The translations under genes and the position numbers were made by a program. Below are positions 1 through 15,128 of a stretch of DNA of 16,352 nucleotides, in pieces; the stretch's first letter is position 1; each line of letters starts with the position of its first letter. The notes under the pieces are model-generated. The model worked only from the letters and a program-made list of their open reading frames with translations, was not told where the DNA came from and did no database searches. Source of the DNA: a virus (lineage: Duplodnaviria; Heunggongvirae; Uroviricota; Caudoviricetes); the IMG/VR virus record IMGVR_UViG_2703718777_000029, positions 1-16,352 of that record. The stretch is one strand, 5' to 3'.

Positions 1-426
1 TTAAAACTCTGCTTTCATTTTATCCGGGAATTTTTTATTTGCAGCATAATAACTACCAAGTATATAAGCGTTCATTTGCTGCTCTACATCAACCCGACAT
101 GCAGCACTAGAACAAGCACCACTGATAAGCCCAAAAGAACTCCCTTTAGCAGAGAGATCAGCTTTAATTTCCTCTACAGTGTTTTTCCCCATAGCAACTA
201 CACACCCTGTAACAATATATCTAGCCTTCACATCATCCATGCTAAGGATAGTGGTTTTCGCAATTTTGCTGTATCCATCATTTTTATAAACATCCATGGC
301 AAACGCACGGCAATCTGTATAATACGGACTTGCTTTAACTTGCGAATACTCAGGTAATTTCATACCTGCACAACCAACTAAACAAAAACCTATCGCTGCT
401 ATTAATACCTTTTTCATTACACTCAT
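1..426 (-). CDS. Putative lipoprotein (late-region moron), 141 aa; start may be the second ATG at 417
   Basis: N-terminus MSVMKKVLIAAIGFCLVGCAG has a basic n-region, hydrophobic core and an LVGC lipobox. The gene is visibly AT-rich compared with flanking phage genes and sits just downstream of the Q-associated terminator. Stop TAA at 1-3. No family recognised. Confidence 0.6.
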   Translation of the reverse strand: MSVMKKVLIAAIGFCLVGCAGMKLPEYSQVKASPYYTDCRAFAMDVYKNDGYSKIAKTTILSMDDVKARYIVTGCVVAMGKNTVEEIKADLSAKGSSFGLISGACSSAACRVDVEQQMNAYILGSYYAANKKFPDKMKAEF

Positions 427-573
427 AACCTAGAAGCATCATTGAAACTAATTTATTAAATATTCATCGAGTTTCTGGAATACAGACGTTACCCATCTCT
501 CCAAAATCTAAAAGATAATAAGAAAAAATGTTTAACGTACCAATCCATTTCATAGTTTCATGAGACATCAGGC

Positions 574-600
574 ACAAAAAAACCCGCTCAGCGGCGGGTT
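574..600 (-). terminator. Intrinsic terminator downstream of Q (tR'-like)
   Basis: On the minus strand: stem CCCGC (plus 594-598 / 583-587) with a 6-nt loop, extended by A-T pairs, followed by a run of 7 U (plus A-run 576-582). Lies about 105 nt downstream of the Q stop. Confidence 0.75.
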
Positions 601-646
601 CTTAAATCTTATCAACGGTAGACATACAAAGCCCATCGTTGGGAAA

Positions 647-675
647 ATCTTATCCATATTTTTTGAAAAATGCAA
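647..675 (-). promoter_or_regulatory. Candidate late promoter (PR'-like) between Q and the terminator
   Basis: Minus strand TTGCAT (675..670), 17-nt spacer, TAAGAT (652..647). Both hexamers are weak matches and the position is inferred by analogy to lambda PR'/qut. Confidence 0.25.
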
Positions 676-706
676 GCATCATGTCGCCATCTTCGGCGAA
701 AATCAT

Positions 707-1459
707 TTATCTTGTCACTTTTCTCAATTGTGTCTCTGCATATGCTTCTTCCTGCCAGCACTTTGTAACCAGTTTATCAATGATATCTGCATATCCTTTG
801 TACCACTGATAATCCGTCAGGGCAGGTACCAGCTTCTGGACATGATGCCGCGCCAGTGTGGTTGGTAAACGGCTAAACCGGTTACCATTGCAACGCCCAC
901 AAATCTTATAAACAGGCGTACCATGAAGCCGGGTTCTTTTTTCATCCAGGACAATACCTTTACCCTTACACCCTCTGCACGCTGTGCTGACTTCTCCCTT
1001 ACCATGACAATGCTGACATAGTTCCTTCACCCACTCTTCCTTGATAACAGATTCCCCGCTTCTGGAGTGTTTCACCACCTCGCGCAATACATTATGAAAT
1101 CCAGTACCAGCACAATGCTCACAGCGAGCCTTACTTGCCGCAGACCTGGAATAATCAGCAAAGGCAAAATTCACAAGGTAAGGGATGATCTGTAACCGGG
1201 TTTCTTCACTCAATTTATTCAATGTCGGGTTATCCAGTGCCATCGCGTAATTGAGCAGACCTTCAATCGCAAACTGAGGATCCTGAACACCAACTTTTGC
1301 CAGGAATAAGGCAAAACCCAGTGGTGCTTTCGACTGCACCATCCCCTGCGCAGCAATTACATCCGTAATTGTTAAACCACCAGAGCCTGTCGCCGGTGCG
1401 TCATCACTCAGTTTTGGAGATTTTGGGGAGTAATATTTTGGTAAGGCTTCAAGGTTCAT
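707..1459 (-). CDS. Late-gene antitermination protein Q-like (QuuQ-like), 250 aa
   Basis: ATG at 1459 preceded by GGAGAA at 7-nt spacing. Cys-rich central region with four CxxCxGxG-type motifs (CEHCAGTG, CQHCHGKG, CRGCKGKG, CGRCNGNR). Position immediately upstream of a strong intrinsic terminator and downstream of a DUF968 gene matches the Qin prophage ydfU-quuQ arrangement as remembered. Confidence 0.65.
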   Translation of the reverse strand: MNLEALPKYYSPKSPKLSDDAPATGSGGLTITDVIAAQGMVQSKAPLGFALFLAKVGVQDPQFAIEGLLNYAMALDNPTLNKLSEETRLQIIPYLVNFAFADYSRSAASKARCEHCAGTGFHNVLREVVKHSRSGESVIKEEWVKELCQHCHGKGEVSTACRGCKGKGIVLDEKRTRLHGTPVYKICGRCNGNRFSRLPTTLARHHVQKLVPALTDYQWYKGYADIIDKLVTKCWQEEAYAETQLRKVTR

Positions 1460-1472
1460 GCTCGTTCTCCAC

Positions 1473-2468
1473 TTACGCCAGTACGCCTATTGCCAGCGCA
1501 CGATCGATAAAACGAAATATCAGCTCCAGCTGGGAGCCATACTTCTCTTCAAATGTCACGGTATCCGCATGCAGCTCGTCGTGATGCTTTCTGCACAAAG
1601 GCAACACAAAGAGATCATGCGCTTTTGTACCCATTCCACCCTGACCGTGGCCTATCAGGTGGTGGGGATCATCAGCGGGCTTTCCACAACATGCGCACGG
1701 CTGCGTCTTAACCCAGCGCGTGTACTTTTCATTAACCCAGCGGCGACGTTTGGGGCGTAACATAAAAGACTCCGGCGACTCCGGATCCACTTTCAGCGCC
1801 AGCACCTTTTTCGCTTTATCCTGGATGATGCTGGTGGCAGGAACCGAAGGCACAAGGTCACTTTCCCGGGTGACAGACGGCACAACAGGCTTCGGTAATC
1901 TCAGTGCCTTACGGGCTGCACTTTCCGGTAAGGCATCCGCCAGGTCATTACGAATCAGCCACCAGCACAGTTCCGGCATTGTCACAACGTGACTGTCATC
2001 AAAACCGAGATCCCGACGCACAACAGACAACACCCAGCGGGCACAGTTATCCGTTGCCATTGATTCCAGCCGTTCCGTGAACTGATCGCGCAGCTGGTTA
2101 TCGCAGTGCCAGCACAGACGGATTGCACCCGGAGCGTGTCGCATTGTGGTCATGTTCTCGCTGTGCCAGTCGGAATGAAGCCACTGGCAGCCTTTTTCAC
2201 GAAGTAACCAGCTTTCAAGACATTCCACGCCACCAGCACGACGGATCACTGCCTCATTGCGGAACACGGCCCGAACGGAAGGATCATCCGCCAGCGGTTG
2301 TGATGCCGCCGGAACGGCACCACTAGCGAAAGATGAATAACGTTCCGGCTCAGGCTCCAGCAGGACACGCCCCTGCATAAACAGGGGCATCAGCTCTGAA
2401 CCTGGCCTGAACAATACGATCCCCATACGCGGGGCAATTTCAGGGGTCAGTAGTGCTCTCACGGTCAC
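1473..2468 (-). CDS. DUF968 (YdfU-like) protein with C-terminal Cys/His-rich HNH-like region, 331 aa from a GTG start
   Basis: C-terminus CACCGKPADDPHHLIGHGQGGMGTKAHDLFVLPLCRKHHDELHAD. The frame opens with GTG at 2468, one nt after the KilA-N stop; the first ATG is at 2426 with no clear SD, so the start is uncertain. Confidence 0.6.
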   Translation of the reverse strand: MTVRALLTPEIAPRMGIVLFRPGSELMPLFMQGRVLLEPEPERYSSFASGAVPAASQPLADDPSVRAVFRNEAVIRRAGGVECLESWLLREKGCQWLHSDWHSENMTTMRHAPGAIRLCWHCDNQLRDQFTERLESMATDNCARWVLSVVRRDLGFDDSHVVTMPELCWWLIRNDLADALPESAARKALRLPKPVVPSVTRESDLVPSVPATSIIQDKAKKVLALKVDPESPESFMLRPKRRRWVNEKYTRWVKTQPCACCGKPADDPHHLIGHGQGGMGTKAHDLFVLPLCRKHHDELHADTVTFEEKYGSQLELIFRFIDRALAIGVLA

Positions 2469-2469
2469 C

Positions 2470-3285
2470 TCAATGAACGGTATCGAGCAGCTTTAACAGC
2501 TCAGGGAATCGGGATTCGAAGAAATGCGGCTGCGTCTCGCGCGGATTTGCGGGACTGGTGATGTTCTTGCCGAACATGCAGCCTTTCGCCGTCAGCGACC
2601 AGAATTTTTTGATGTTGTTAATCCCGGTACGGCTGTATCGTTCGCGCTGCTCGACGATCCCCAGCTTCACCATCTGGTGATATGCCTGATTAGCCGTCAG
2701 GCGGATACCATACTGCTTCAGCAGTGCACTCAGCGACAGCGTAGGGCGGCTTGAACCATCTGGCGCATCAGCAGGTGCATCAATGGCATAGATCGGCATA
2801 AGTTCAGGAAGACCAGCTACCTTTGATAATTTCTGGTATGCACCAAGTTTCGAGGAGTTTGACAGATTTAGAGTCTTTGCTGCTGATTCAAGCAGAATGA
2901 CCCCGGATTTAATTTTGTCGGATGTGGTTTCTTCTGGTGATGAATTATGAAGCGCATCAAAAGTACGTATCACTTTTAAGCTGAATGCCGGGCTGATCCA
3001 CATTGCATATGCATAGACCAGCTCTTTACAGACATACGTCCCACCATTGCGCCCCTGAATGGTGATGACAGGAATACTACGGGAATCTCCCGTAGTTTCT
3101 TCTTCCAGTAATTCCACAAGAGCCTTCGTTTCAGGACGACGCATAAACTCGTGAACTTCCAGCGAACGGGAGGAGCGATTCTCACCAGCGGCAAGAAGAG
3201 CAGCTTTCTGAAGGTCGTTAAGACAGTAGTTAGATTCAAAGTACTGGCGCACAGAAACGCCATCAATTACAAGCAACTGATTCAT
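2470..3285 (-). CDS. KilA-N domain protein (putative antirepressor-like), 271 aa
   Basis: MNQLLVIDGVSVRQYFESNYCLNDL...ITIQGRNGGTYVCKELVYAYAMWISPAFSLKVIRTFD is a KilA-N-type N-terminal domain. ATG at 3285 is preceded by GGAGAA; the track ORF extends to 3381 but that extension lacks an RBS. Confidence 0.7.
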   Translation of the reverse strand: MNQLLVIDGVSVRQYFESNYCLNDLQKAALLAAGENRSSRSLEVHEFMRRPETKALVELLEEETTGDSRSIPVITIQGRNGGTYVCKELVYAYAMWISPAFSLKVIRTFDALHNSSPEETTSDKIKSGVILLESAAKTLNLSNSSKLGAYQKLSKVAGLPELMPIYAIDAPADAPDGSSRPTLSLSALLKQYGIRLTANQAYHQMVKLGIVEQRERYSRTGINNIKKFWSLTAKGCMFGKNITSPANPRETQPHFFESRFPELLKLLDTVH

Positions 3286-3371
3286 TGGTTTCTCCACAAA
3301 TTTCGGGACTGCACTCCCTTTTCGTTGATGCAAGATGAACTTACTGCGATTTTTAATAGTTATCAAGGATA

Positions 3372-3391
3372 CACTGTTCATAAATACAGTA
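3372..3391. promoter_or_regulatory. Candidate LexA (SOS) box upstream of the KilA-N gene
   Basis: cACTGTtcataaatACAGta contains the palindromic CTGT-N8-ACAG core (3374-3389) with an AT-rich centre; about 16 of 20 positions match the E. coli LexA consensus TACTGTATATATATACAGTA. Located in the 150-bp gap between rusA and the KilA-N gene. Confidence 0.5.
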
Positions 3392-3436
3392 TCTTTAACG
3401 AGGTAATACCCAAATTTAGGGTGTTGCTCAATTCCG

Positions 3437-3832
3437 TTACCGAGTTGCTAATTTGCAACTCGCTTTTTCGTACTTACTGATAGTGATCTCGACCTTCCCT
3501 TCCGGGATAACCGGTCCCCACTCCACCAGCATTCTTTTCACCTGACTGTCGTCTTCCCACACACCCGCGTGGGTCAGGGCGTCAAACAGCGCCTTGTTAT
3601 AGTTGTCCAGATCGCGGATCCGGTTATCCGGAGGAAACAACACGATCTCCACTGATGCAGGTGCCGACGTTGGTTTTGGCAGACGACGTAACTGCTCAAC
3701 TATTGCTGCACACGCCGCGCTCTGAAATTTTCGCCCCGCCTCGCTTATCAGGCTCTTACCAGCAAATGCCACTTTGTTGGGGTGTCGCCAGTACATGTTC
3801 ACGCTGGGCGGAAAAGGCAGTATTAGCTTCAT
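3437..3832 (-). CDS. rusA: Holliday junction resolvase RusA, 131 aa
   Basis: MKLILPFPPSVNMYWRH... and RDLDNYNKALFDALTHAGVWEDDSQV match the RusA signature (compare E. coli RusA LPWPPSNNRYYRH / [26 protein letters not shown]). Start ATG overlaps the Dam stop (ATGA at 3829-3832). Confidence 0.9.
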   Translation of the reverse strand: MKLILPFPPSVNMYWRHPNKVAFAGKSLISEAGRKFQSAACAAIVEQLRRLPKPTSAPASVEIVLFPPDNRIRDLDNYNKALFDALTHAGVWEDDSQVKRMLVEWGPVIPEGKVEITISKYEKASCKLATR

Positions 3833-4482
3833 GCCACCATCTCCCTGACCAGTTTTTCCGCCTGCTGGCGAACCTGCGCCAGAAATGCCTCACCACATGC
3901 CTCAAGTTCATCGCGCCCGATGTAGCTGATTGCCGGTCCCTTCCAGGTCTTGTCGAAAACAGCAATAGCACCAGCGAAGAAAGCACCTGTTGGCACCTGC
4001 TTTTCGTCTTTCGGGATAAACCAGGCAGGCAGTTCAAAACCAATACGCCCGCGAATAAAAGCAATATGATCTGCATCTTCCGGCCACCACACTTCGCTGG
4101 TGGCAGCTTTGATCAGGAAAACATAGCGCCCGCCTTTATCACGCATGGCACTGGCATGCTTCATGATGTAACGCATGCCGGTGATGTATTGCCCCTCATG
4201 CTGACTGGCGCGGCTGTACGGGGGATTGCCAAAGGCAGCACCTTTAAGCTCCGCAAGACGTTCTGACCAGTCATGCGCCAGCGCGTTGTCTTCCGCCGTG
4301 TAATACGCGGCACATTTGGCGTTATCACCGTCAGTGAACAGATCCAGAACAAACGGACCAAACAAGGTGTTAATTCCCCAGAAAATGTTGTCCGGCGTGC
4401 GCCACTGATCGCCCACTTCCTTCAGTTCATGGGCTGGTTTGTTCCGCAGTTCTACCAGCGCCTGGCAATATTTATTACTCAT
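3829..4482 (-). CDS. Phage DNA N6-adenine methyltransferase (Dam family), 217 aa
   Basis: NPPY catalytic motif (FGNPPYS) typical of N6-adenine methyltransferases; overall resemblance to phage orphan Dam methylases. Start ATG overlaps the stop of the upstream small ORF. Confidence 0.8.
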   Translation of the reverse strand: MSNKYCQALVELRNKPAHELKEVGDQWRTPDNIFWGINTLFGPFVLDLFTDGDNAKCAAYYTAEDNALAHDWSERLAELKGAAFGNPPYSRASQHEGQYITGMRYIMKHASAMRDKGGRYVFLIKAATSEVWWPEDADHIAFIRGRIGFELPAWFIPKDEKQVPTGAFFAGAIAVFDKTWKGPAISYIGRDELEACGEAFLAQVRQQAEKLVREMVA

Positions 4483-4574
4483 TAAGCCCCCACGTAAAAA
4501 GCATCCGCAATGTCTCCGGAAGTACAGCCCGGATGGGCTTCAATGAATTTCTGAACGTCATTTAACAGACTCAT
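4482..4574 (-). CDS. Unannotated small ORF, 30 aa (MSLLNDVQKFIEAHPGCTSGDIADAFYVGA), between the replication and Dam genes
   Basis: Hand-translated from the sequence. ATG at 4574 lies 2 nt after the O-like stop, preceded by AGGGGG; its TAA overlaps the Dam ATG (TAATG at 4480-4484). Below the ORF-track length cutoff. Confidence 0.4.
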   Translation of the reverse strand: MSLLNDVQKFIEAHPGCTSGDIADAFYVGA

Positions 4575-4576
4575 GA

Positions 4577-5407
4577 TCACCCCCTGAATCCTGCCGGGAT
4601 CTGGCTGTAGTCCACGTTGTCGTAACTGGCTTTGAAGTACGGGTCCTCACGTCCGGCTACAGATACCGCAGGAACTTCCCAGGATTCTTCGAAATGACGA
4701 TCCGGACCAAAGAACGTGACAGCCTGTTTCACAAATTGTGTGCCGCTGTTACCCATCGCAGATACCCAGCCCGCGTAGCGTTTCACACCTTCCAGCATGG
4801 TTTCGGGTTTTACCCCCTCATTCAAACGGGCTTTCCAGGCTTTGAAGGCTGCAGATTTTGAATTGCCACCAGCACGTTTGGGGTATGCCAGCCATGCCTG
4901 CTCAAACTCCGGAGAGTATTCCGGTCGGTTTGAACGAACTCGCACAGACTCATCAGCAGATGCACCAACAGCTATTGGTTCATTGACTGGTTCTTTGACT
5001 GGTTCTTTGACTGGTTCAAAAGAGTGACTGGTTCTGGGTGAATCTCCTGCACTACCCCCTGGTGCAACTCCTGCACTACCTGGTGAATTTGCTGCACCAG
5101 ATAGTGAATTATTTGCACTACCCCCTAGTGAATCTCCTGCACCATCCAGATGAAGGAGATAGATATTACTTGAGTTACCTTTTTCACCTTTCCGGGTGAC
5201 TTTTTTTACCAGCCCGGACTCACAAAGGGCCGCAATATGATTCATCACAGAACGTTTGCTAATCTCGCACTGGTCAGCAATATGCTGGTAGCTGGGCCAG
5301 CACTCGCCCTGATCGCTGGCATTATCAGCCAGCTTAATCAGAACCAGTTTTCGCAATGGATTTCCCACTCGAATTTTCATCGCTTTAACCATCAGCTCCA
5401 TACTCAT
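4577..5407 (-). CDS. Replication initiator (O-like) with N-terminal winged-HTH domain and internal repeat linker, 276 aa
   Basis: N-terminal LRKLVLIKLADNASDQGECWPSYQHIADQCEISKRSVMNHIAALCESGLVKK resembles phage replication-initiator HTH domains. Central low-complexity G/S/A-rich linker and EPVKEPVKEPV are encoded by DNA repeats. ATG at 5407 has a strong GGAGGTG RBS and overlaps the upstream stop (ATGA); the track start at 5446 is a TTG. Confidence 0.65.
   Translation of the reverse strand: MSMELMVKAMKIRVGNPLRKLVLIKLADNASDQGECWPSYQHIADQCEISKRSVMNHIAALCESGLVKKVTRKGEKGNSSNIYLLHLDGAGDSLGGSANNSLSGAANSPGSAGVAPGGSAGDSPRTSHSFEPVKEPVKEPVNEPIAVGASADESVRVRSNRPEYSPEFEQAWLAYPKRAGGNSKSAAFKAWKARLNEGVKPETMLEGVKRYAGWVSAMGNSGTQFVKQAVTFFGPDRHFEESWEVPAVSVAGREDPYFKASYDNVDYSQIPAGFRG
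4983..5145. repeat. Iteron-like direct repeats inside the O-like gene (candidate origin of replication)
   Basis: Three tandem copies of TTTGACTGGTTC (4982-5017) plus a fourth TGACTGGTTC (5025-5034), then about five degenerate ~24-bp repeats of the type GAATCTCCTGCACTACCCCCTGGT (5039-5145), followed by an AT-rich stretch. Analogous to lambda ori iterons embedded in O. Confidence 0.5.
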
Positions 5408-5628
5408 GCAGCACCTCCGAGATGCTTCATGTTTTTTCCGGAGCAAAAGGCTATAAGCGGCATACTGATGCGGTAATTACGGCCCAGCGGTTCACAAATC
5501 ACCTTCTGACATTCACGGTCAACCAGGCTAACACGTAGAACATGCCCTGCAGGTGTGGTGTACCACTGACCGGGGCGAGGACAACGGAAAGTCTGATTGG
5601 TAAACCGTTTGAAAATATTCCGGATCAT
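5404..5628 (-). CDS. Hypothetical small protein, 74 aa
   Basis: ATG at 5628 preceded by AAGGGGG and overlapping the Rha stop (ATGA); its stop overlaps the O-like ATG (ATGA). No recognisable domain. Confidence 0.5.
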   Translation of the reverse strand: MIRNIFKRFTNQTFRCPRPGQWYTTPAGHVLRVSLVDRECQKVICEPLGRNYRISMPLIAFCSGKNMKHLGGAA

Positions 5629-6773
5629 TTACGCCCCCTTACCTCTGAAGAGTTCAGCGACGAATGAATAAGACGGGCAAGAAATGCCGCATCGTTAATT
5701 CGGTCATACAGACTTACAGCCAGCGGTGATTCAACTTTTGCCAACATAGGATAAAGCTGCTGCAGCCAGACCTGATGAATTGATGAAATGTAGGAATAGA
5801 GAACGTTGGCGTTATGTGCAACGTCGCTCGGTACAGAGGGCTTTGAAAGCTGTTTCTCCATCTGGTTAAAGGCATTGATGTATGCCTCTTTGAACTGGGC
5901 AGCACGTTTACCAGTGAAACCCATAGCAAGAAACGCAAAGCCGTCGCGGGTTATTTGATAGCAAGGTAGTTTGCGGCCTGTGCAATCGGTGTAATCACTC
6001 ACCGAAAAATTGCGGGCAGTGAATGATGCGGAACATTCAAGCGTGCGGATCTTTTTCAGTACATCGTCATGACGTTTGGAGAAGAAGTTGGCAACAGCCA
6101 GGGATGAAGTAACAGCCTGACCATCAACGATGGCAATTTCAGGTTGAGTGAGGGTTGGGATCGTAGCCATGATGGCAGCCTCCGTTGACTGTGGAAAACT
6201 TCCACCACCGGAGCTGCGAAACTCACTGGTGGCAGACTGAACAGGGTTCGCAGTACCGGCGTCAACGGAGACCGGCGAGCCTTTCGGCTCCCCTGCCCAG
6301 CCCACCATAATTCTGGCGTGCGTGAGCGCGGACGATAAAAAAGACGCTGGCGCGTCGTATATCGCCGTTGACAATTCCGGGCTGCGACCCCCGGCACCCG
6401 CTTTATAAGGTGCCTGAACAGTGTAACGTCCCGGAATTCCAGAATCAATATGCTGGTGGTCCTTCACACTCAACAAAATCACGCCTGAATTTCCACAAAG
6501 GACTAAAGCACTCATGTGGGTAGTCTTTGCGAAGATAGATAACGCGCTGTGTTTCTGGCTCCCAACGAATAACATGAACATAAAGTCCTCTTCCGTCACG
6601 AAACCAGCGGTTAAGTTCCTGCACAACTCGCCCCCCACAGTCAGGTAAAGTTCTCTGTGGTTACTTACAGCCAGGTGATTTGGTAATCTGCATTCATGCC
6701 GTAACAACAGGTGTTCAGAGACGCTGACCACCAGCTGTTGCGACAAACGGTTATTTGCCGTTAAACTGTTCAT
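5625..6773 (-). CDS. Rha-family phage regulatory protein; Rha domain begins at the internal ATG at 6170 (181 aa), while the open frame continues upstream to 6773 (382 aa)
   Basis: MATIPTLTQPEIAIVDGQAVTSSLAVANFFSKRHDDVLKKIRTLE... is a typical Rha N-terminus, and the ATG at 6170 has GGAGG 8 nt upstream. The frame stays open for 201 further codons upstream to an ATG at 6773 that overlaps the CII-like stop (ATGA). The 6171-6773 portion has no recognised domain. Confidence 0.65.
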   Translation of the reverse strand: MNSLTANNRLSQQLVVSVSEHLLLRHECRLPNHLAVSNHRELYLTVGGELCRNLTAGFVTEEDFMFMLFVGSQKHSALSIFAKTTHMSALVLCGNSGVILLSVKDHQHIDSGIPGRYTVQAPYKAGAGGRSPELSTAIYDAPASFLSSALTHARIMVGWAGEPKGSPVSVDAGTANPVQSATSEFRSSGGGSFPQSTEAAIMATIPTLTQPEIAIVDGQAVTSSLAVANFFSKRHDDVLKKIRTLECSASFTARNFSVSDYTDCTGRKLPCYQITRDGFAFLAMGFTGKRAAQFKEAYINAFNQMEKQLSKPSVPSDVAHNANVLYSYISSIHQVWLQQLYPMLAKVESPLAVSLYDRINDAAFLARLIHSSLNSSEVRGRK

Positions 6774-7354
6774 GCGTTAGTTTCTCCACAACCAGAAGCA
6801 ATCGACGCCACGACGCCCGGAGCTGCACACTCGCGGGCGTTACTCTTTTCCGGTGCACAAAAAACACGAAATAACAGTGTTAAATGCTCCTGCCACTTCG
6901 CCATTACTTGGTAGCTGTTCTCTTCGATTTGCTCACGCTCAGCCTGGTCAATAACTCCATCAGCAGTTGCCTTGCGTAAGTACTGGGAATGCTTGCCAAT
7001 CCATTCTATTGACTCCATCAGCCGCTGATTAATGTCACCATTGTCAATGTCATCAATGACCACCAGCGGCACAAACACCCCATAACTACGACGGGCTATT
7101 GCATCTGTTACATGCCTGGTACCACTGGCATCCTGTAAAACCATGGCCCACTCAAGTGGAAAAATTTGATCCCCACCGCTACGCAGTCTGTTATGCAATT
7201 GATCTTTTGCTGGGGTGATATCATCAGATTTATACAAACCAAGAATTTCTGCTGCTTCCTCATAGCCATGAGGTAAATCAGCAATCGTTCTTCGTATTGC
7301 TGCCACCAGCCATGCTGGTTGTTTATCAACTTTCCATTCAGGTTCTTTACCCAC
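6770..7354 (-). CDS. CII-like / YdaT-family early regulator, 194 aa from a GTG start
   Basis: Second gene of the rightward early operon, directly after the Cro-like gene. GTG at 7354 is preceded by GAGGAA at 8-nt spacing. Family assignment is from position and weak sequence impression only. Confidence 0.45.
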   Translation of the reverse strand: MGKEPEWKVDKQPAWLVAAIRRTIADLPHGYEEAAEILGLYKSDDITPAKDQLHNRLRSGGDQIFPLEWAMVLQDASGTRHVTDAIARRSYGVFVPLVVIDDIDNGDINQRLMESIEWIGKHSQYLRKATADGVIDQAEREQIEENSYQVMAKWQEHLTLLFRVFCAPEKSNARECAAPGVVASIASGCGETNA

Positions 7355-7381
7355 GGTTAATTCCTCATTTCTGTGGTGTTT

Positions 7382-7579
7382 TTATGCCGCAGCACTGTTA
7401 GTCTTTTGATATAAAGACACGTCAACTTTCAGTTTCCCGTTAGTAATTTTTTCTAACTGGTACGCTCGGCCTTCAGGAATAATCTCAGGCCACTCTGAAA
7501 CAGACGGATGCTTAATACCTAGGGCTTCGGCGGTTTTACAAACTCCGCCGAAATAATTAATCACGTCGGATTTCCGCAT
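7382..7579 (-). CDS. Cro-like (YdaS-type) HTH DNA-binding protein, 65 aa
   Basis: Small HTH protein (GGVCKTAEALGIKHPSVSEWPEIIPEGRAYQLEKITNGKL) divergent from the CI-like repressor; GGGAGA RBS 7 nt upstream of the ATG. Confidence 0.75.
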   Translation of the reverse strand: MRKSDVINYFGGVCKTAEALGIKHPSVSEWPEIIPEGRAYQLEKITNGKLKVDVSLYQKTNSAAA

Positions 7580-7610
7580 TTCTGTCTCCCGTTAAATTAC
7601 GTTAAGCAGA

Positions 7611-7676
7611 AATGTAGGATATCCAACATACCAATGTCAAGAATCCTACATAGTCATGTGGTAGGATTGCCTACAT
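7611..7676. promoter_or_regulatory. Right operator/promoter region: three operator sites and a PR-like promoter
   Basis: Site 1 ATGTAGGATATCCAACAT (7612-7629) is a near-palindrome. Site 2 (7634-7651) and site 3 (7659-7676) share the half-site ATCC(T/A)ACAT. On the minus strand, TTGACA (7640..7635), 18-nt spacer, TACATT (7616..7611) overlaps site 1 and would drive cro. Confidence 0.6.
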
Positions 7677-8328
7677 GATGAACATGAGTGATCGTATTCG
7701 CCAAAGGCGAAAAGAACTGAACCTGACACAACAAGCACTGGCTGATTTGACTGGTGTGAACCGTGTCACGGTTACTGGATGGGAAAAGGACGACTACCAA
7801 CCAAATGGAGCCAACCTTCAAGCCCTAGCCAACGCACTTAAATGCGATCCTCTGTGGCTTGTTAGCGGAAAAGGCTCGCCTGAACCAAAGATAAATCTAA
7901 AACCTGAAATATTCGCAGTTAAAAAAGTCCCCCTCATCTCGTGGGTTCAGGCGGGTTCATGGACAATGACGGAGCCTGGTGTCAGGAAAGAAGATGCTGA
8001 AGAGTGGGTTTATACTACCGCCCTTGTATCAGAAATGGCATTTGCACTACGGGTCCGTGGTGATTCAATGACCAATCCCCTCGGCTCACCATCGATACCA
8101 GAAGGTTCTATCGTTATCGTAGAGCCAGATATTATTGATACAGAGTGTATTAACGGAAAAATCGTTGTTGCCCATATCAATGGTGGGCAAGAAGCGACAC
8201 TCAAAAAATTTGTTGAGGACTGGCCGAACAGGTATCTCGTCCCACTAAATCCTAACTATAAAACTATTGAATGCGGTGAGAACTGCAGAATAGTTGGTCT
8301 TGTCAAACAAGTAATAATGGATTTTTGA
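7675..8328 (+). CDS. CI-like prophage repressor (XRE-family HTH plus S24 LexA-like autopeptidase domain), 217 aa
   Basis: N-terminal HTH (LNLTQQALADLTGVNRVTVTGWE); C-terminal S24 peptidase signature with GDSM serine (RVRGDSMTNP) and a downstream lysine (EATLKKF). No SD before the ATG cluster at 7675/7678/7684, so the mRNA may be leaderless as for lambda cI. Confidence 0.85.
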   Translation: MMNMSDRIRQRRKELNLTQQALADLTGVNRVTVTGWEKDDYQPNGANLQALANALKCDPLWLVSGKGSPEPKINLKPEIFAVKKVPLISWVQAGSWTMTEPGVRKEDAEEWVYTTALVSEMAFALRVRGDSMTNPLGSPSIPEGSIVIVEPDIIDTECINGKIVVAHINGGQEATLKKFVEDWPNRYLVPLNPNYKTIECGENCRIVGLVKQVIMDF

Positions 8329-8350
8329 CACATCTTCCTCACTATCGCAA

Positions 8351-8375
8351 AACCGGGGTATCCCCGGTTTTTTTA
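8351..8375 (+). terminator. Intrinsic terminator after the cI-like gene (bidirectional shape)
   Basis: AACCGGGG-tat-CCCCGGTT hairpin followed by TTTTTTT and preceded by an A-run. Confidence 0.7.
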
Positions 8376-8390
8376 TGAGCCTATCTTTTT

Positions 8391-8444
8391 ATGTAGGATA
8401 ACCAACATAAACTCTTGACACTCACATGTTGGATATCCTACATT
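8391..8444 (+). promoter_or_regulatory. Left operator/promoter region: two operator sites and a PL-like promoter
   Basis: ATGTAGGATAACCAACAT (8391-8408) and ATGTTGGATATCCTACAT (8426-8443); the latter is the exact reverse complement of right-side site 1. TTGACA (8415-8420), 18-nt spacer, TACATT (8439-8444) mirrors the PR-like promoter. Confidence 0.6.
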
Positions 8445-8602
8445 TGTTTTTAGAGTTGTGGTGAATGCGCAGGCTGATGCGCGAAAGACATTGCAGCTAT
8501 TACGGAAAAGAGCTGTTCGGCGGGGCAATTAAATGCCCGTGAGAGTCTGAAATAACCGCAAGCCGGAGATCAGCACCGATCACCACAACAGCCACTGCTT
8601 TG

Positions 8603-8650
8603 GCGGTACCAGTTTGTACACTTGCTTCCGGCTGGTACCGCTCTTTTTAC
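8603..8650 (+). terminator. Terminator-like hairpin in the early-left leader (possible attenuator or end of a short leader RNA)
   Basis: Perfect 10-bp inverted repeat GCGGTACCAG (8603-8612) / CTGGTACCGC (8632-8641) with a 19-nt loop, followed by TCTTTTTAC. The sequence CGCTCTTTTTA spanning the 3' arm resembles a boxA element. Confidence 0.4.
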
Positions 8651-8785
8651 AAAACAGAGAAGAGCATCACCGGACGACGGGCTCATAACCCAATCCACCC
8701 GGGCGGCTGCCACCGCAGGTGTTCTTCTCTGTTTTGTGGAGAAACCAACCGACCTTGCAGGGTCGATATGATGAGGAGCAGCAAA

Positions 8786-9148
8786 ATGGCTAGCGAACGC
8801 AGTACTGATGTGCAGGCATTTATCGGGGAGTTGGACGGCGGCGTATTTGAAACCAAAATCGGCGCTGTTCTCAGTGAAGTCGCTTCCGGTGTGATGAACA
8901 CGAAAACCAAAGGTAAGGTCTCGCTCAACCTGGAAATCGAACCGTTTGATGAGAACCGTGTGAAAATCAAACACAAACTCTCATATGTTCGCCCGACTAA
9001 CCGCGGGAAAATTTCCGAAGAAGACACCACCGAAACGCCGATGTATGTCAATCGCGGTGGTCGCCTGACTATTCTGCAGGAAGACCAGGGACAATTACTG
9101 ACTCTTGCCGGTGAACCTGACGGAAAACTACGCGCAGCAGGTCATTAA
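8786..9148 (+). CDS. YfdP-like early protein, 120 aa
   Basis: ATG at 8786 preceded by AGGAG at 7-nt spacing; the upstream in-frame extension to 8600 in the track has no RBS and overlaps the leader hairpin. Size and position match CPS-53 YfdP as remembered. Confidence 0.55.
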   Translation: MASERSTDVQAFIGELDGGVFETKIGAVLSEVASGVMNTKTKGKVSLNLEIEPFDENRVKIKHKLSYVRPTNRGKISEEDTTETPMYVNRGGRLTILQEDQGQLLTLAGEPDGKLRAAGH

Positions 9149-9213
9149 TATCGTTCTTAATTAACTGATTATTTATCTCATCACTGAATATCTTTATATA
9201 GTGAGGACTTATT

Positions 9214-10038
9214 ATGTCTCAGAACTTAGACGCAACCGCAATTAATCAAATCCATGCCCTTATTTCTGCTCAGGGTGTTAATGAAATTATCAGTAAGATT
9301 GGTGCCGATGCTGTGGCATTGCCTGAGAATTTCCGCATTCATGATCTGGAAAAATTTAATTTAAATCGCTTCCGTTTCCGTGGTGCGCTTTCCACTGCCA
9401 GCATCGATGACTTTACCCGTTATTCTAAAGATCTTGCAGATGAAGGCACCCGCTGCTTTATCGATGCCGATAATATGCGTGCCGTCAGTGTGCTTAACCT
9501 GGGTACTATTGATGAACCAGGTCACGCAGATAACACCGCCACTCTCAAGCTAAAAAAGACAGCACCGTTTTCTGCTCTGTTGTCTGTTAATGGCGAGCGT
9601 AACTCCCAGAAGTCACTGGCAGAATGGATTGAAGACTGGGCCGACTACCTTGTGGGCTTTGATGCTAATGGTGACGCTATTCAGGCAACAAAAGCGGCTG
9701 CGGCTGTCCGTAAAATCACGATTGAAGCAAACCAGACCGCTGATTTTGAAGATAATGACTTCAGCGGCAAACGCTCCCTGATGGAGTCTGTCGAAGCGAA
9801 GACCAAAGATATTATGCCAGTGGCATTTGAATTTAAATGCGTTCCGTTTGAAGGTCTGAAAGAACGTCCATTTAAATTACGCCTCAGCATTATCACTGGC
9901 GATCGTCCTGTACTGGTTCTGCGCATTATTCAGCTGGAAGCAGTGCAGGAAGAAATGGCTAACGAATTTCGTGATCTGCTTGTTGAGAAATTCAAAGACA
10001 GCAAAGTAGAAACCTTTATTGGTACTTTCACCGCCTGA
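9214..10038 (+). CDS. DUF2303 (YfdQ-like) protein, 274 aa
   Basis: Length and overall character match E. coli CPS-53 YfdQ as remembered; GTGAGGA RBS 6 nt upstream of the ATG. Confidence 0.6.
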
Positions 10039-10050
10039 TTTCATTACTGC

Positions 10051-10072
10051 AAATGCCCCTGCGGGGGCATTT
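10051..10072 (+). terminator. Hairpin between the yfdQ-like and yfdR-like genes (weak terminator or attenuator candidate)
   Basis: AAATGCCCC-tgcg-GGGGCATTT, a 9-bp stem with a 4-nt loop; only a short T tract follows. Confidence 0.3.
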
Positions 10073-10165
10073 ATGGAAACGTAATTAACTCAATAATCGC
10101 CGGATGGTGAGGGCTTCCTTTTACCAGAATTCAGCGCGGTGCAGCGCATATACGTGGAGAACAAA

Positions 10166-10702
10166 ATGTCATTTATTAAAACTTTTTCCGGTAAGCATTT
10201 TTATTATGACAGGATAAATAAAGACGACATCGATATTAACGATATCGCGGTTTCCCTTTCAAATATCTGTCGCTTTGCCGGTCATCTTTCGCACTTCTAC
10301 AGCGTCGCCCAACATGCGGTTCTTTGCAGCCAGCTGGTACCGCAGGAATTTGCTTTTGAAGCGTTAATGCATGATGCAACAGAAGCGTATTGCCAGGACA
10401 TCCCCGCTCCACTGAAACGCCTTCTTCCTGACTATAAACAGATGGAAGAAAAAATAGACGCCGTAATCCGTGAGAAATACGGGTTACCCCCGGTTATGAG
10501 TACGCCCGTGAAATATGCCGATCTCATCATGCTGGCAACCGAACGCCGCGATCTCGGGCTTGATGATGGCTCTTTCTGGCCTGTACTGGAAGGCATCCCG
10601 GCAACAGAGATGTTCAACGTGATTCCACTGGCACCGGGCCATGCCTACGGGATGTTTATGGAACGTTTTAACGAGTTATCGGAGTTACGCAAATGCGCAT
10701 GA
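10166..10702 (+). CDS. HD-domain phosphohydrolase (YfdR-like 5'-deoxynucleotidase), 178 aa
   Basis: HD-domain His and His-Asp motifs (SVAQHAVLCSQ...LMHDATEAY). ATG at 10166 preceded by GGAG; the track GTG at 10139 has no RBS. Length matches E. coli YfdR. Confidence 0.7.
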   Translation: MSFIKTFSGKHFYYDRINKDDIDINDIAVSLSNICRFAGHLSHFYSVAQHAVLCSQLVPQEFAFEALMHDATEAYCQDIPAPLKRLLPDYKQMEEKIDAVIREKYGLPPVMSTPVKYADLIMLATERRDLGLDDGSFWPVLEGIPATEMFNVIPLAPGHAYGMFMERFNELSELRKCA

Positions 10703-11043
10703 ATGTTTTCGAAATGGAAGGGTTTCTTCGCGGGAAATGTGTACCGCGAGATCTGAAAGTGAATGAAACAAATGCTGAGTATCTGGTGCGTAAATTCGAT
10801 GAAGTACGTGCTGAGGCTCGCAACGAGGGTATTAACTATACCGCAAGCCGCCTTGCTGCTGCGTTCAATCACGGATTTATCAATAAGTCTTTACGTGAAG
10901 TTTTCGACGTTACACGCATGATTCTGTCAGCGAAAGATGAGTTGGCTAATGAACCGCACCCGATTGATGGTCTGTCCGGTGAATATGCGGAGAAATCCCT
11001 TGAAGAATGGGCGGAACAGATTCGCAAAGGAGGCAACCAGTGA
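10693..11043 (+). CDS. Hypothetical early protein, 116 aa
   Basis: ATG at 10693 with GGAG 8 nt upstream; overlaps the yfdR-like stop by 10 nt. No recognised domain. Confidence 0.5.
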   Translation: MRMNVFEMEGFLRGKCVPRDLKVNETNAEYLVRKFDEVRAEARNEGINYTASRLAAAFNHGFINKSLREVFDVTRMILSAKDELANEPHPIDGLSGEYAEKSLEEWAEQIRKGGNQ

Positions 11044-11684
11044 ATAACCGCTTTTACATGATGTGCTTGCGTGAAACTGTGGGTAATAACGCTTCATTCC
11101 ATTGCCATAACGGCAATGGTTACAGTTCTAATATCGATCGCGCTCATGTTTACACGCTGGAAGAAGCCCAAAAAGCCTGGAATTGTGGTCGAGATATCGA
11201 TCAGCCTGTTTGCGCTGATAGCGTGGATGCAATGGCTGTGTGGCACGTTGATTGCCAGTACATCCCTACAGAAAACCTGATTGAGCCAGATTGCACTGCG
11301 TATGTGGCCTACAAAAAAGGTAGCTGGAACGGCAACGATGTTTACTGGCTTCAACACGGTGGATTGCCAACAGATGACTTCAGTAAAGCGACCATCTTTA
11401 GCGTCGCCAACAAAAACGAACCAGGAATAGTTTGGTTGCCATTTTCCATTGCTGATTCAGCAAAGCGCCGGACGTTCAATATCAATAACTTTAACCGCAG
11501 AACAATGGTTCAGGGCGCAGGTTTGGTCATGCCTGACTGGTTGAAAAAGCAGAACAGAAGAAAGAAGTCGCGAAGCGGGAAGGTGCGTTGGAATTGTCCG
11601 CATTGCGGAAAAATCACCTGGCAGTACAACCCATATGATTTTGAAGGCTGTAGTGATTACAACTGTGAAGGATGGCGAGAATGA
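11040..11684 (+). CDS. Hypothetical Cys-rich protein with C-terminal zinc-ribbon-like CPHCG...C..C motif, about 214 aa from GTG
   Basis: GTG at 11040 has a perfect AGGAGG SD 7-8 nt upstream and overlaps the upstream stop (GTGA); the alternative ATG is at 11058. Confidence 0.45.
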   Translation: MNNRFYMMCLRETVGNNASFHCHNGNGYSSNIDRAHVYTLEEAQKAWNCGRDIDQPVCADSVDAMAVWHVDCQYIPTENLIEPDCTAYVAYKKGSWNGNDVYWLQHGGLPTDDFSKATIFSVANKNEPGIVWLPFSIADSAKRRTFNINNFNRRTMVQGAGLVMPDWLKKQNRRKKSRSGKVRWNCPHCGKITWQYNPYDFEGCSDYNCEGWRE

Positions 11685-12277
11685 CAATTGACTATCAGGC
11701 ACTGCGTGAAAAGGCAGAGAAAGCAACTAAAGGAAGCTACATCGTAGGGCATACATCTGTTAACCAGCACGGCAATTTAACAGGAGTTTTTGTTTGCCAA
11801 AAATGGAAAGGAGAACTCGGTGGCGTGATTGCGGAATGTCATGTTAACTGCCTGGTTGAAACAGATGTTCAGGCTTATGCAAACGCTGAATTTATTGCAG
11901 CTTTTAATCCAAATGTTGCGCTGACACTACTGGATGAACGGGAAAGAAATCAGCAATACATCAAATCACGCGACCAGGAGAACGAGGAAATTGCGCTAAC
12001 GGTTGGGAAGCTGCGAGTTGAGCTTGAGGAGACAAAATCAAAACTCAACGAGCAGCGTGAGTATTACGAAGGTGTTATCTCCGATGGGAACAAGCGTATT
12101 GCTGAACTGGAAGCGCGGGAAGTTCAATTACCGACTCGCTACGACCTTCGATATGGACACCCGATAAATGCAGATGAGCGACATGTCATGATACCTAAAG
12201 AAAATGGCAGTTGGCTTTACCTGATTGACCTAGAACACGCATTACGCGTCGCTGGCATTCGCATCAAAGGAGAGTGA
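11681..12277 (+). CDS. Ead/Ea22-like protein, 198 aa
   Basis: N-terminus MTIDYQALREKAEKATKGSY is the characteristic Ea22-like start, followed by a coiled-coil-like middle. ATG overlaps the upstream stop (ATGA at 11681-11684); the track start at 11672 adds three codons. Confidence 0.65.
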   Translation: MTIDYQALREKAEKATKGSYIVGHTSVNQHGNLTGVFVCQKWKGELGGVIAECHVNCLVETDVQAYANAEFIAAFNPNVALTLLDERERNQQYIKSRDQENEEIALTVGKLRVELEETKSKLNEQREYYEGVISDGNKRIAELEAREVQLPTRYDLRYGHPINADERHVMIPKENGSWLYLIDLEHALRVAGIRIKGE

Positions 12278-12278
12278 G

Positions 12279-12983
12279 ATGACCACTTTTACCGACAAAG
12301 AACTGATTAAAGAAATCAAAGAGCGCATAGGCAGCTTGGACGTTCGAGACAATATTGAGCGCCGTGCTTATGAAATTGCACTGGCATCGCTGGAAGAAGA
12401 TCCGGTTGCTTATATTTTCAAACATCCGGCCGGGAAATTATTCTGGGCTTTAACGGATGAAAGCAATAAAGAGCAAGCGGACGTTATTCCTGTTTATGCT
12501 GCCGCGCCTGCATCGGTTGTGCCGGATAATACATCAAAGCCTCTTGCTTATGCTTACAAAGAGCTTACGCCTGAGATTATGCGCAACCATTTAGCTGTAT
12601 TCGAGCGATATGGAATAGCCCCAAACGATAGCACTACCACAATTCAGGCACTGCGAATCGCGCTGGATGGTATAGAGCGGAGCGCCGCCATGCTTCAGGG
12701 TGCCAAACCTGTAAGCCAAACTTACAAGTTGAACGAGCTATCGGGCAACTCTCCGGTGACTCCGGATGGTTGGATAAGCTGTAGTGAGCGAATGCCGAAA
12801 AAGAATCAGAACGTACTTATTTCGGTGAATTTCGATAGTGATCTGGTTGAGCCGCTAATATGCTCCGCACGCTATACCGGAAGCACCTTTCGGCGCGGAG
12901 ATGCAACGATTAAGCCGGGTAATGGTATTGAGCAAGCAACTCACTGGATGCCGCTACCAGAACCGCCGCAGGAGGTAAAGTAA
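12279..12983 (+). CDS. DUF551 domain protein, 234 aa
   Basis: C-terminal DGWISCSERMPKKNQNVLISV...EQATHWMPLPEPPQ is typical of DUF551. GGAG RBS; start lies 2 nt after the upstream stop. Confidence 0.65.
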   Translation: MTTFTDKELIKEIKERIGSLDVRDNIERRAYEIALASLEEDPVAYIFKHPAGKLFWALTDESNKEQADVIPVYAAAPASVVPDNTSKPLAYAYKELTPEIMRNHLAVFERYGIAPNDSTTTIQALRIALDGIERSAAMLQGAKPVSQTYKLNELSGNSPVTPDGWISCSERMPKKNQNVLISVNFDSDLVEPLICSARYTGSTFRRGDATIKPGNGIEQATHWMPLPEPPQEVK

Positions 12984-13177
12984 TGAACAACTTAATGACA
13001 ACTAAACAAGTCGCCAACTTCTGTGGAGTTTCAGTATCGACAGTTCTTCGCTGGAACAGCGTAAACAGGAGAACTGGCCAGAAATACAGGCCTGACTTCC
13101 CAGATCCTGATATTAAATCCTGCCCAAATAAATGGGCATCACGCAAGATATACAGGTTTGCGGGAGTTATTGAGTAA
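12983..13177 (+). CDS. Excisionase-like (AlpA/Xis family) HTH protein, 64 aa
   Basis: HTH TTKQVANFCGVSVSTVLRW followed by FPDP...W, resembling lambda Xis and AlpA motifs. GGAGGT RBS; ATG overlaps the upstream TAA (TAATG). Last gene of the early-left operon before the integration module. Confidence 0.55.
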   Translation: MNNLMTTKQVANFCGVSVSTVLRWNSVNRRTGQKYRPDFPDPDIKSCPNKWASRKIYRFAGVIE

Positions 13178-13341
13178 TACGTATTCGTTCAGATGTGAGT
13201 TAACACATCTATGGCACAGAGCTAAACCTAATAAGACTGTCTACTCTGTGCCTGAAGTAGATGTTGCAAATACCACCAGCGAAGCACCAAAATTAATGGT
13301 GCAGGATGATGCAGATAATTCTGATGAAAACACCCAGAATT

Positions 13342-13350
13342 TGTTACAAT
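13342..13350 (+). promoter_or_regulatory. Candidate extended -10 promoter for the AT-rich membrane-protein gene
   Basis: TGtTACAAT (TG, one base, then TACAAT) about 60 nt upstream of the ATG at 13410; no convincing -35 element. Confidence 0.35.
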
Positions 13351-13409
13351 AAGTACATAGTATTAAAGTTTTTTATGAATGTCTAAATGTATCTTATTCA
13401 GAGGTGATA

Positions 13410-14957: not shown

Positions 14958-15044
14958 TGATATATTTATCCATCACCTGCTTATATTGCAGGTGGTATCC
15001 TGAACCCAGTTGATCTATCAGTCAAAAAGTTAATCGTATAGCGT

Positions 15045-15096
15045 TCAAATATAAGAATAATGGCAGCTCTCGCTTTACGCTCAAAGCAGGCTGCCA
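15045..15096 (-). terminator. Candidate terminator between the convergent membrane-protein and integrase genes
   Basis: Inverted repeat TGGCAGC (15061-15067) / GCTGCCA (15090-15096) with internal GCTTT/AAAGC pairing, followed on the minus strand by a U-rich tract. A second hairpin CACCTGC-ttatatt-GCAGGTG lies at 14974-14994. Confidence 0.35.
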
Positions 15097-15128
15097 AATT
15101 TGATTACATACTGGCTGGGCATACTGTA

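Follow-up and report, generated by a model that had tools for sequence, protein, structure and literature searches.

Prophage genes under LexA control are already well known. In coliphage 186 (Tum) and Fels-2 type phages, host LexA directly represses a prophage promoter, which adds an SOS input, and in the filamentous phage CTX-phi the LexA site of PrstA, a promoter controlled by LexA and RstR, reportedly lies upstream of the -35 hexamer. The Gifsy prophages carry an SOS locus in which a dinI homologue and the antirepressor gene gftA are driven by a LexA box lying 1.3 kb past the replication genes, with terminator-like palindromes ahead of it; this locus is required for SOS induction, and the Gifsy repressors are uncleaved (PMC3121763). 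In the Bacillus phage GIL01, host LexA and gp7 repress the late promoter P3, which is activated by a truncated LexA homologue, gp6 (PMC6182141). In addition, endolysin promoters of prophages from extraintestinal pathogenic E. coli (ExPEC) carry LexA boxes, as gel-shift experiments (EMSA) showed (PMC9621596). Here we analysed a stretch of 16,352 nt from a tailed phage of the Caudoviricetes (IMG/VR record IMGVR_UViG_2703718777_000029, positions 1 to 16,352; hereafter the window), which is part of a lambdoid prophage with its early-right operon on the minus strand. The analysis centred on a LexA (SOS) box at 3372..3391, in front of a gene encoding a KilA-N protein. Our results indicate that this box is real and that it is probably a functional operator for host LexA.

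The box reads cACTGTtcataaatACAGta on the plus strand and TACTGTATTTATGAACAGTG on the minus (gene) strand. A first-pass annotation of the window had described it as a near-consensus CTGT-N8-ACAG site with an AT-rich centre, and this description was borne out, since both half-sites, CTGT and ACAG, are intact and six of the eight central bases are A or T. The same annotation had cautioned that the probability of one such match arising in 16 kb is not negligible. The caution is justified for the bare CTGT-N8-ACAG core, which is not rare (two matches in the window, at 3374 and 6655, with 0.23 expected), and does not extend to the complete 20-mer. To score the latter, as had been proposed, we built a Lewis-type heterology index (HI) from 27 E. 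coli LexA sites, whose leave-one-out values span 1.4-12.0. The window box has an HI of 4.90, inside the range of the reference sites and between hokE/sulA and recA, these values being approximate. The second-ranking 20-mer of the window reached 11.45, and none of 300 dinucleotide-preserving shuffles of the window attained 4.90 (best shuffle, 5.66). For comparison, among candidate boxes of E. coli K-12 the LexA-binding cluster peaks at an HI of 7.34 and the remainder at 22.32 (PMC12527982). The full 20-mer is a high-quality LexA box, far better than chance. The core match at 6655 was rejected as a LexA site (GC-rich centre, HI >14.4). A search with the idealised TACTGT(AT)4ACAGTA, allowing at most three mismatches, retrieved no match; it misses the box because this has four mismatches, all at weakly constrained positions.

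The box is located in the gap between rusA and the KilA-N gene (3286-3436, 151 bp). This is the largest gap of the nin-like block, although not the only sizeable one as first claimed, since a second gap of 94 bp occupies 4483-4576. The true start of the KilA-N gene is the ATG at 3285, with GUGGAGAA just before it, and the box lies 86 nt upstream, close to the distance of about 90 bp given initially. The Shine-Dalgarno region GUGGAGA (3291..3297, minus strand) corresponds to a GTGGAGA that is invariant in all aligned loci. The alternative start at 3381, within the box, was rejected as a mechanical extension of the open reading frame (ORF); this in-frame ATG (3379-3381) lengthens the mechanically called product to 303 aa. 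Gene callers often run the KilA-N ORF through the box in this manner (products of 296-303 aa), which masks the regulatory region in annotations. Just past the box, the minus strand contains a predicted -35 hexamer, TTGATA (3361..3366), and, after a 17-nt spacer, a predicted -10 hexamer, TAAGTT (3338..3343), in agreement with the promoter candidate of the first-pass annotation. We retained this pair as a promoter because its position is conserved in other genera, the -35 position being kept there and the -10 being kept as TAAnnT in relatives. From it we infer a transcription start near 3331 on the minus strand. The box lies upstream of the -35 at a distance of 5 nt, so that it would span approximately -60 to -41, outside the core promoter and adjoining the conserved promoter-like element.

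Of 5,426 complete E. coli genomes, 186, among them strains of O104:H4, O111:H8 and O157:H7, carry the same gap region (204 places). It is also present in Shigella phage SfIV, which together with E. coli phage PhiR49_1 constituted the nearest record (97.6%). The main difference between these copies and the window is an 11-bp insertion in the 5' untranslated region (5'UTR). The E. coli copies are at least 95% identical in all but one genome, and since the E. coli/Shigella copies are too alike for footprinting, we fetched 71 loci with KilA-N homologues, one genome per species (loci are denoted by L numbers below). A LexA-like 20-mer (HI of 12 or less, within 200 nt of the KilA-N start) was present in 14 of the 28 other-genus loci with a gap of at least 60 bp, where the background expectation is 1.3% (binomial P 1.7e-19, which overstates the significance because the loci are not independent). 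No LexA-like site was found in loci with a spacing of 16-42 bp between the upstream gene and KilA-N. Relatives with a rusA-KilA-N spacing of 17-21 bp have neither the cassette nor the box. The window has an insertion of about 140 bp between the rusA codons ...KYE and a hairpin of the 5'UTR, and this insertion contains the LexA box, the promoter and two palindromes. Cassette and box are jointly present or jointly absent, and therefore promoter and box come and go together.

When nine diverged intergenic regions were aligned, the invariant columns of the box were exactly the TG and CAG of CTG-N10-CAG, and outside the box invariance was confined to the -10 region, the hairpin and the Shine-Dalgarno sequence. 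The -35 position is occupied by hexamers such as TTGAAA, TTGCAG and TTGAAG in Phytobacter, Atlantibacter, Raoultella, Enterobacter, Leclercia and Superficieibacter, and the arrangement of box, 4-5 nt, TTGAnA, 17 nt and TAAnnT recurs in these genera and in Citrobacter. The place of the palindrome relative to the promoter differs between groups: the Escherichia/Enterobacter group has it at -60..-41, Pantoea/Rosenbergiella across the -35 and the spacer, and Rahnella, Serratia and Erwinia across the -10 and the start. The predicted KilA-N promoter thus consistently comes with a LexA-type palindrome, and this coupling across genera supports both the box and the promoter proposed earlier. The strongest site of the whole KilA-N box family is that of the window. 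These comparisons also bear on the idea that the palindrome arose by chance or is a relic, and regulates nothing. The bare core, at 0.23 expected occurrences per window, and the location of the box outside the core promoter would be in line with such an origin. It is nevertheless highly improbable, given that no shuffle reached the HI of the box, that sites are positionally enriched in other genera (P about 1e-19) and that the TG and CAG columns stay invariant within an otherwise variable spacer.

Other LexA-like sequences were observed in the fetched loci. Near-perfect LexA boxes are located about 3.6 kb upstream of KilA-N in L017 (371-390, TACTGTTTTTATATACAGTA, HI 1.1) and L015 (approximately 270-289, CACTGTTTTTACATACAGTA, HI 4.0), two prophages with no box directly before KilA-N. 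The L017 box, the one of the pair that was inspected, lies within the apparent linker-coding part of a cI-like repressor gene on the opposite strand. Strong LexA-like 20-mers (TACTGTAAAAATAAACAGTG and relatives) were also detected downstream of KilA-N, about 2.5-3.9 kb from its start, in L008 (7165-7184), L024, L044 and L055. They were set aside: the L008 copy, the single one inspected, lies among the opening codons of a DNA methyltransferase gene after Q, and the group is probably a coding coincidence, though one that recurs in several genera.

Taking these data together, we consider it moderately probable that a host-LexA operator on an internal nin-region promoter gives the KilA-N block an SOS input independent of cI. 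LexA binding, repression from -60..-41, SOS induction, the extent of the transcript and the action of the KilA-N protein are what we infer from the sequence, as follows. The operator and a weak sigma-70 promoter would have been inserted as a cassette of about 140 bp between rusA and KilA-N in the nin-like region. A LexA dimer occupying about -60 to -41, against the -35, would keep the weak promoter off in the lysogen by hindering RNA polymerase, probably through its contacts via the alpha C-terminal domain (alpha-CTD) with the upstream (UP) region and via sigma region 4. The AT-rich box may itself overlap a UP-like region needed by a promoter with such a poor -10. Upon DNA damage, activated RecA (RecA*) would promote the self-cleavage of LexA and the promoter would fire, producing an mRNA from near 3331 with the 5'UTR hairpin, a strong ribosome-binding site and KilA-N. 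The transcript would probably include DUF968 and Q as well, because the gaps between these genes are 1 and 13 nt and no convincing terminator lies between them. A block leading to late-gene activation would in this way respond to SOS without depending on cI cleavage, pR or N. Since the window encodes no phage LexA homologue, host LexA would be the sole LexA-type protein available at this site.

Several observations weigh against this proposal. A box upstream of the -35, and not over the core promoter, is unusual for LexA repression, CTX-phi PrstA being reported as a comparable case, and a strict consensus promoter scan did not return the TTGATA-17-TAAGTT pair, whose -10 is weak. The scale on which the box was scored is approximate, and the 186 near-identical E. 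coli copies say nothing about selection. In other genera, GTG or ATG often replaces CTG in the distal half-site (HI 8-14); many such sites would therefore be weak for LexA, and these weaker boxes could belong to another protein. The literature searched held no binding or expression data for the locus. Finally, nearly all close relatives carry a truncated LexA homologue of their own, which is possibly the main user of the site.

This homologue, here called phLexA, is a 108-aa protein consisting of the LexA DNA-binding domain only and is encoded between dam and rusA in relatives of the window. It matches Pfam LexA_DNA_bind (2.9e-19), retains the recognition helix RSxNAAxEHL and shares 43% identity with LexA residues 1-86. 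Its stretch LLAGE aligns with the LexA cleavage site VAAGE. In SfIV, in every inspected E. coli genome, in all best genome matches and in seven of the seven closest homologue contigs of other genera (Citrobacter, Kluyvera, Cedecea and other hosts), the gene stands two genes upstream of the box. On the minus strand it occupies 4526-4852 in L003, 4544-4870 in L004 and 4441-4767 in L001, and it is present as well in L077, L079, L081 and L083-L086. The window contains no phLexA gene according to tblastn, and a clean module junction is visible at a TCAT at 3829-3832. None of the complete E. coli genomes in the collection had the window's arrangement without phLexA.

The box could accordingly be read as mainly a phLexA operator, either an activator site or a site for re-repression once host LexA is lost, which in the window would be orphaned or used by host LexA alone. 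The kept recognition helix and the neighbourhood of gene and box suit this explanation, as does the centre of the box near -50.5, which fits a class I-type activator site, and GIL01 offers a precedent in which a truncated LexA homologue activates a late promoter that host LexA represses (PMC6182141). Gene and site are nevertheless separable. The window keeps a box with perfect half-sites without the gene, boxes occur with no phLexA within 4 kb in L006, L010, L018-L021, L024 and L040, and phLexA occurs without a box in L002, L011, L015 and L017. We found no covariation between recognition-helix residues 44-45 of phLexA and the half-sites: the proximal CAG is invariant, and the distal half-site showed no clean pattern. 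We regard phLexA as an unlikely main user, and the evidence in its favour is compatible with binding of host LexA too, so that both readings can hold. Since phLexA has no catalytic domain, it should survive the SOS response. A combined circuit, which we put forward tentatively for this widespread group of enterobacterial lambdoid prophages and consider unlikely, would have the operator shared by host LexA, keeping the promoter off in the lysogen, and by uncleavable phLexA produced from the early operon, boosting or shutting it after SOS, to time Q and partly bypass cI, pR and N. It would be a Gram-negative counterpart of GIL01, and in the window, with the homologue lost, Q would have become directly SOS-inducible.

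The gene preceded by the box encodes a 271-aa KilA-N protein (2470..3285, minus strand) and would be the first gene of the predicted LexA-controlled unit. It matches Pfam KilA-N (PF04383; 1.3e-15, 57.6 bits with a cut-off of 23.8, residues 10-114) and PHROG 129, which PHROGs labels as a transcriptional regulator. Its C-terminal half gave no Pfam match even at E<=10, NCBIfam returned no match for the protein, and PADLOC gave a match at the level of KilA-N to a candidate family with no function assigned. Structure models showed weak resemblances to winged-helix, MerR, Xis and Mbp1-type DNA-binding folds. Both halves of the modelled protein look like DNA-binding domains, and it most likely acts as a DNA-binding regulator. 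Homologues of 271 aa with 99% identity exist, and many database homologues have 296-303 aa. Over the C-terminal 100 residues, identity between the window protein and the commonest E. coli alleles is 96-99%, while over the whole proteins it is 67-69%. This difference places a recombination joint inside the KilA-N gene, with a divergent N-terminal domain travelling together with the box cassette.

The first-pass annotation had called this protein antirepressor-like and had envisaged a Tum- or Gifsy-type antirepressor under LexA repression, which would inactivate the prophage repressor and open a second induction route. The LexA box before the gene, the LexA-controlled antirepressor loci at the equivalent map position of Gifsy prophages and the labelling of related proteins as regulators in some database records are in line with this idea. 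The remaining evidence makes it very unlikely. Pfam, PADLOC and NCBIfam searches revealed no similarity to the ANT/KilAC, Tum, GftA or P22 Ant families, and ANT/KilAC is the part tied to antirepressor and SOS-inhibiting activity in such proteins (PMC9043618). The models resemble DNA-binding folds only, and weakly. Many prophages keep the order KilA-N, DUF968, Q without promoter or box, so KilA-N looks like a regular component of the early-to-late transition and not like a dedicated induction trigger. The repressor gene cI (7675-8328, plus strand) encodes a helix-turn-helix domain and a Pfam Peptidase_S24 domain (3.7e-25) with the QAG site, the GDSM serine and the LKK lysine kept; the autocleavage domain was thus correctly described as intact, whereas the Gifsy repressors are uncleaved. 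Moreover, the window has a separate module for this purpose. C4 antisense RNA (6312-6225, 78.8 bits) and isrK (6413-6337, 56.9 bits) were detected with Rfam on the minus strand inside a 382-aa ORF (6773-5625) with Phage_ASH and Phage_pRha domains, just past the cII-like gene. By its domains and RNAs, this ORF is a predicted module of the P1 immI / Gifsy-1 isrK type and a better antirepressor candidate than KilA-N, for which the antirepressor label is unsupported by the sequence comparisons. The suggestion of two SOS inputs, which would both depend on RecA, remains a fair description of a prophage with both a LexA box and intact S24 motifs in cI; the antirepressor route attached to it is not supported.

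The cassette that contains the box also contains, at 3402..3468, a two-hairpin element with an intrinsic-terminator-like stem and a U5 tail on the plus strand. This region folds at -27.7 kcal/mol on the plus strand (z -5.5, 0 of 200 shuffles) versus -20.7 kcal/mol on the minus strand (z -3.0); the plus strand folds better because three G.U pairs become A.C mismatches on the minus strand. The element is specific to the E. coli/Shigella cassette. It possibly represents an RNA of about 67 nt antisense to the 3' end of rusA, or a stop for antisense transcription. A candidate plus-strand promoter (-35 GATACA at 3368-3373, 16 nt, -10 TATCTT at 3390-3395) would have its spacer exactly covered by the box, which raises the question of whether the box controls, alone or additionally, a promoter for this structured RNA. 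The terminator-like hairpin with its U5 on the plus strand only, the stronger fold of that strand and the equal distribution of element and box (each in 186 E. coli genomes, 204 places) would agree with such a role. The promoter hexamers are poor, however (3/6 and 4/6), Rfam gave no match in 3250-3520 even at E<=10, and the copies offer no sequence variation for covariation. The hairpins are also absent from the box-bearing loci of other genera and therefore cannot explain the conserved box. We consider control of an antisense RNA quite unlikely as the role of this site.

A different RNA structure belongs to the predicted KilA-N transcript. The 5'UTR hairpin GGGA-GUGCAG-UCCC (3305..3318, minus strand) has an invariant UGCAG loop and a stem with covariation: across 18 diverse loci, compensatory changes occurred in five of the five apical pairs, and 86.7% of cells were paired versus 54% in shuffles, none of 500 shuffles being as high, although the stem was taken as the best one per sequence, which somewhat inflates the pairing figure. 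Hairpins with the UGCAG loop lie 23-45 nt before the KilA-N start across Enterobacterales (the window, L002 at 3890-3905 and about 20 other loci), and a second GTGCA is often found 10-17 nt upstream of them. They are also present in relatives without the promoter cassette; in Stx2a_1447, for example, a GGCGG-GUGCAG-CCGCC hairpin closes the rusA frame, 22 nt ahead of the KilA-N start. As the hairpin occurs with or without the cassette, it would belong to KilA-N expression and not to the box. This hairpin, the plus-strand terminator-like element beside the box and the phLexA of relatives had all escaped the first-pass annotation.

The genes around the box follow a conserved plan. RusA, with or without a gap, KilA-N, DUF968 and Q keep this order across Enterobacterales, with either type of Q. 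In the window, the upstream early-right gene rusA (3437..3832, minus strand; Pfam RusA) holds the terminator-like hairpin in its last codons. The gene for a DUF968/HNH-like protein (1473..2468, minus strand) starts 1 nt past the KilA-N stop, in a synteny conserved across Enterobacterales, and is followed after 13 nt by the late antiterminator gene Q (707..1459, minus strand; Pfam Antiterm), downstream of which lie a pR'-like promoter and a strong terminator. On the other side, cro of the P22 type (7579-7382, minus strand) and dam (4482-3829, minus strand) are separated by, in order, the cII-like gene, the Rha/Ash ORF and a replication gene.

If the box works as predicted, prophages of this group would have a DNA-damage input wired directly into the genes immediately before Q and probably into Q itself. 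In lambdoid phages, Q alone suffices to switch on the lysis genes; an SOS-driven path to Q independent of cI would therefore alter models of induction threshold and timing. The site also provides a concrete target for truncated LexA homologues, which are common in Stx and Shigella phages without an assigned role. A two-LexA circuit or a direct SOS route to Q, if true, would be a finding of higher interest. The literature searched yielded no account of this box, of a KilA-N gene controlled by LexA or of an enterobacterial truncated LexA homologue, and the SfIV genome paper does not mention LexA.

Compared with known systems, the locus resembles those of Gifsy-1, -2 and -3 (Lemire et al. 2011, PMC3121763) in having a LexA box with its own promoter in the nin-like region, preceded by terminator-like palindromes, and, here as a prediction, in the SOS-inducible transcription unit that results within the early-right operon. 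It differs in the genes concerned, which are KilA-N, DUF968 and Q here and a dinI homologue and the small antirepressor gftA/gfoA in Gifsy, in the intact S24 motifs of its cI, and in its palindromes, which would terminate on the opposite strand only. The KilA-N protein has no sequence or domain similarity to Tum of coliphage 186, and the prophage of the window would need no antirepressor to sense SOS. The case shares with the ExPEC endolysin promoters the direct LexA control, here predicted, of a late or lytic function of an E. coli lambdoid prophage, with other target genes and another genome position. Similarly, the window's relatives, like GIL01, encode a truncated LexA homologue near a LexA box placed before a late-activation block, whereas this homologue is absent from the window, and host, phage type and promoter layout differ from those of GIL01.

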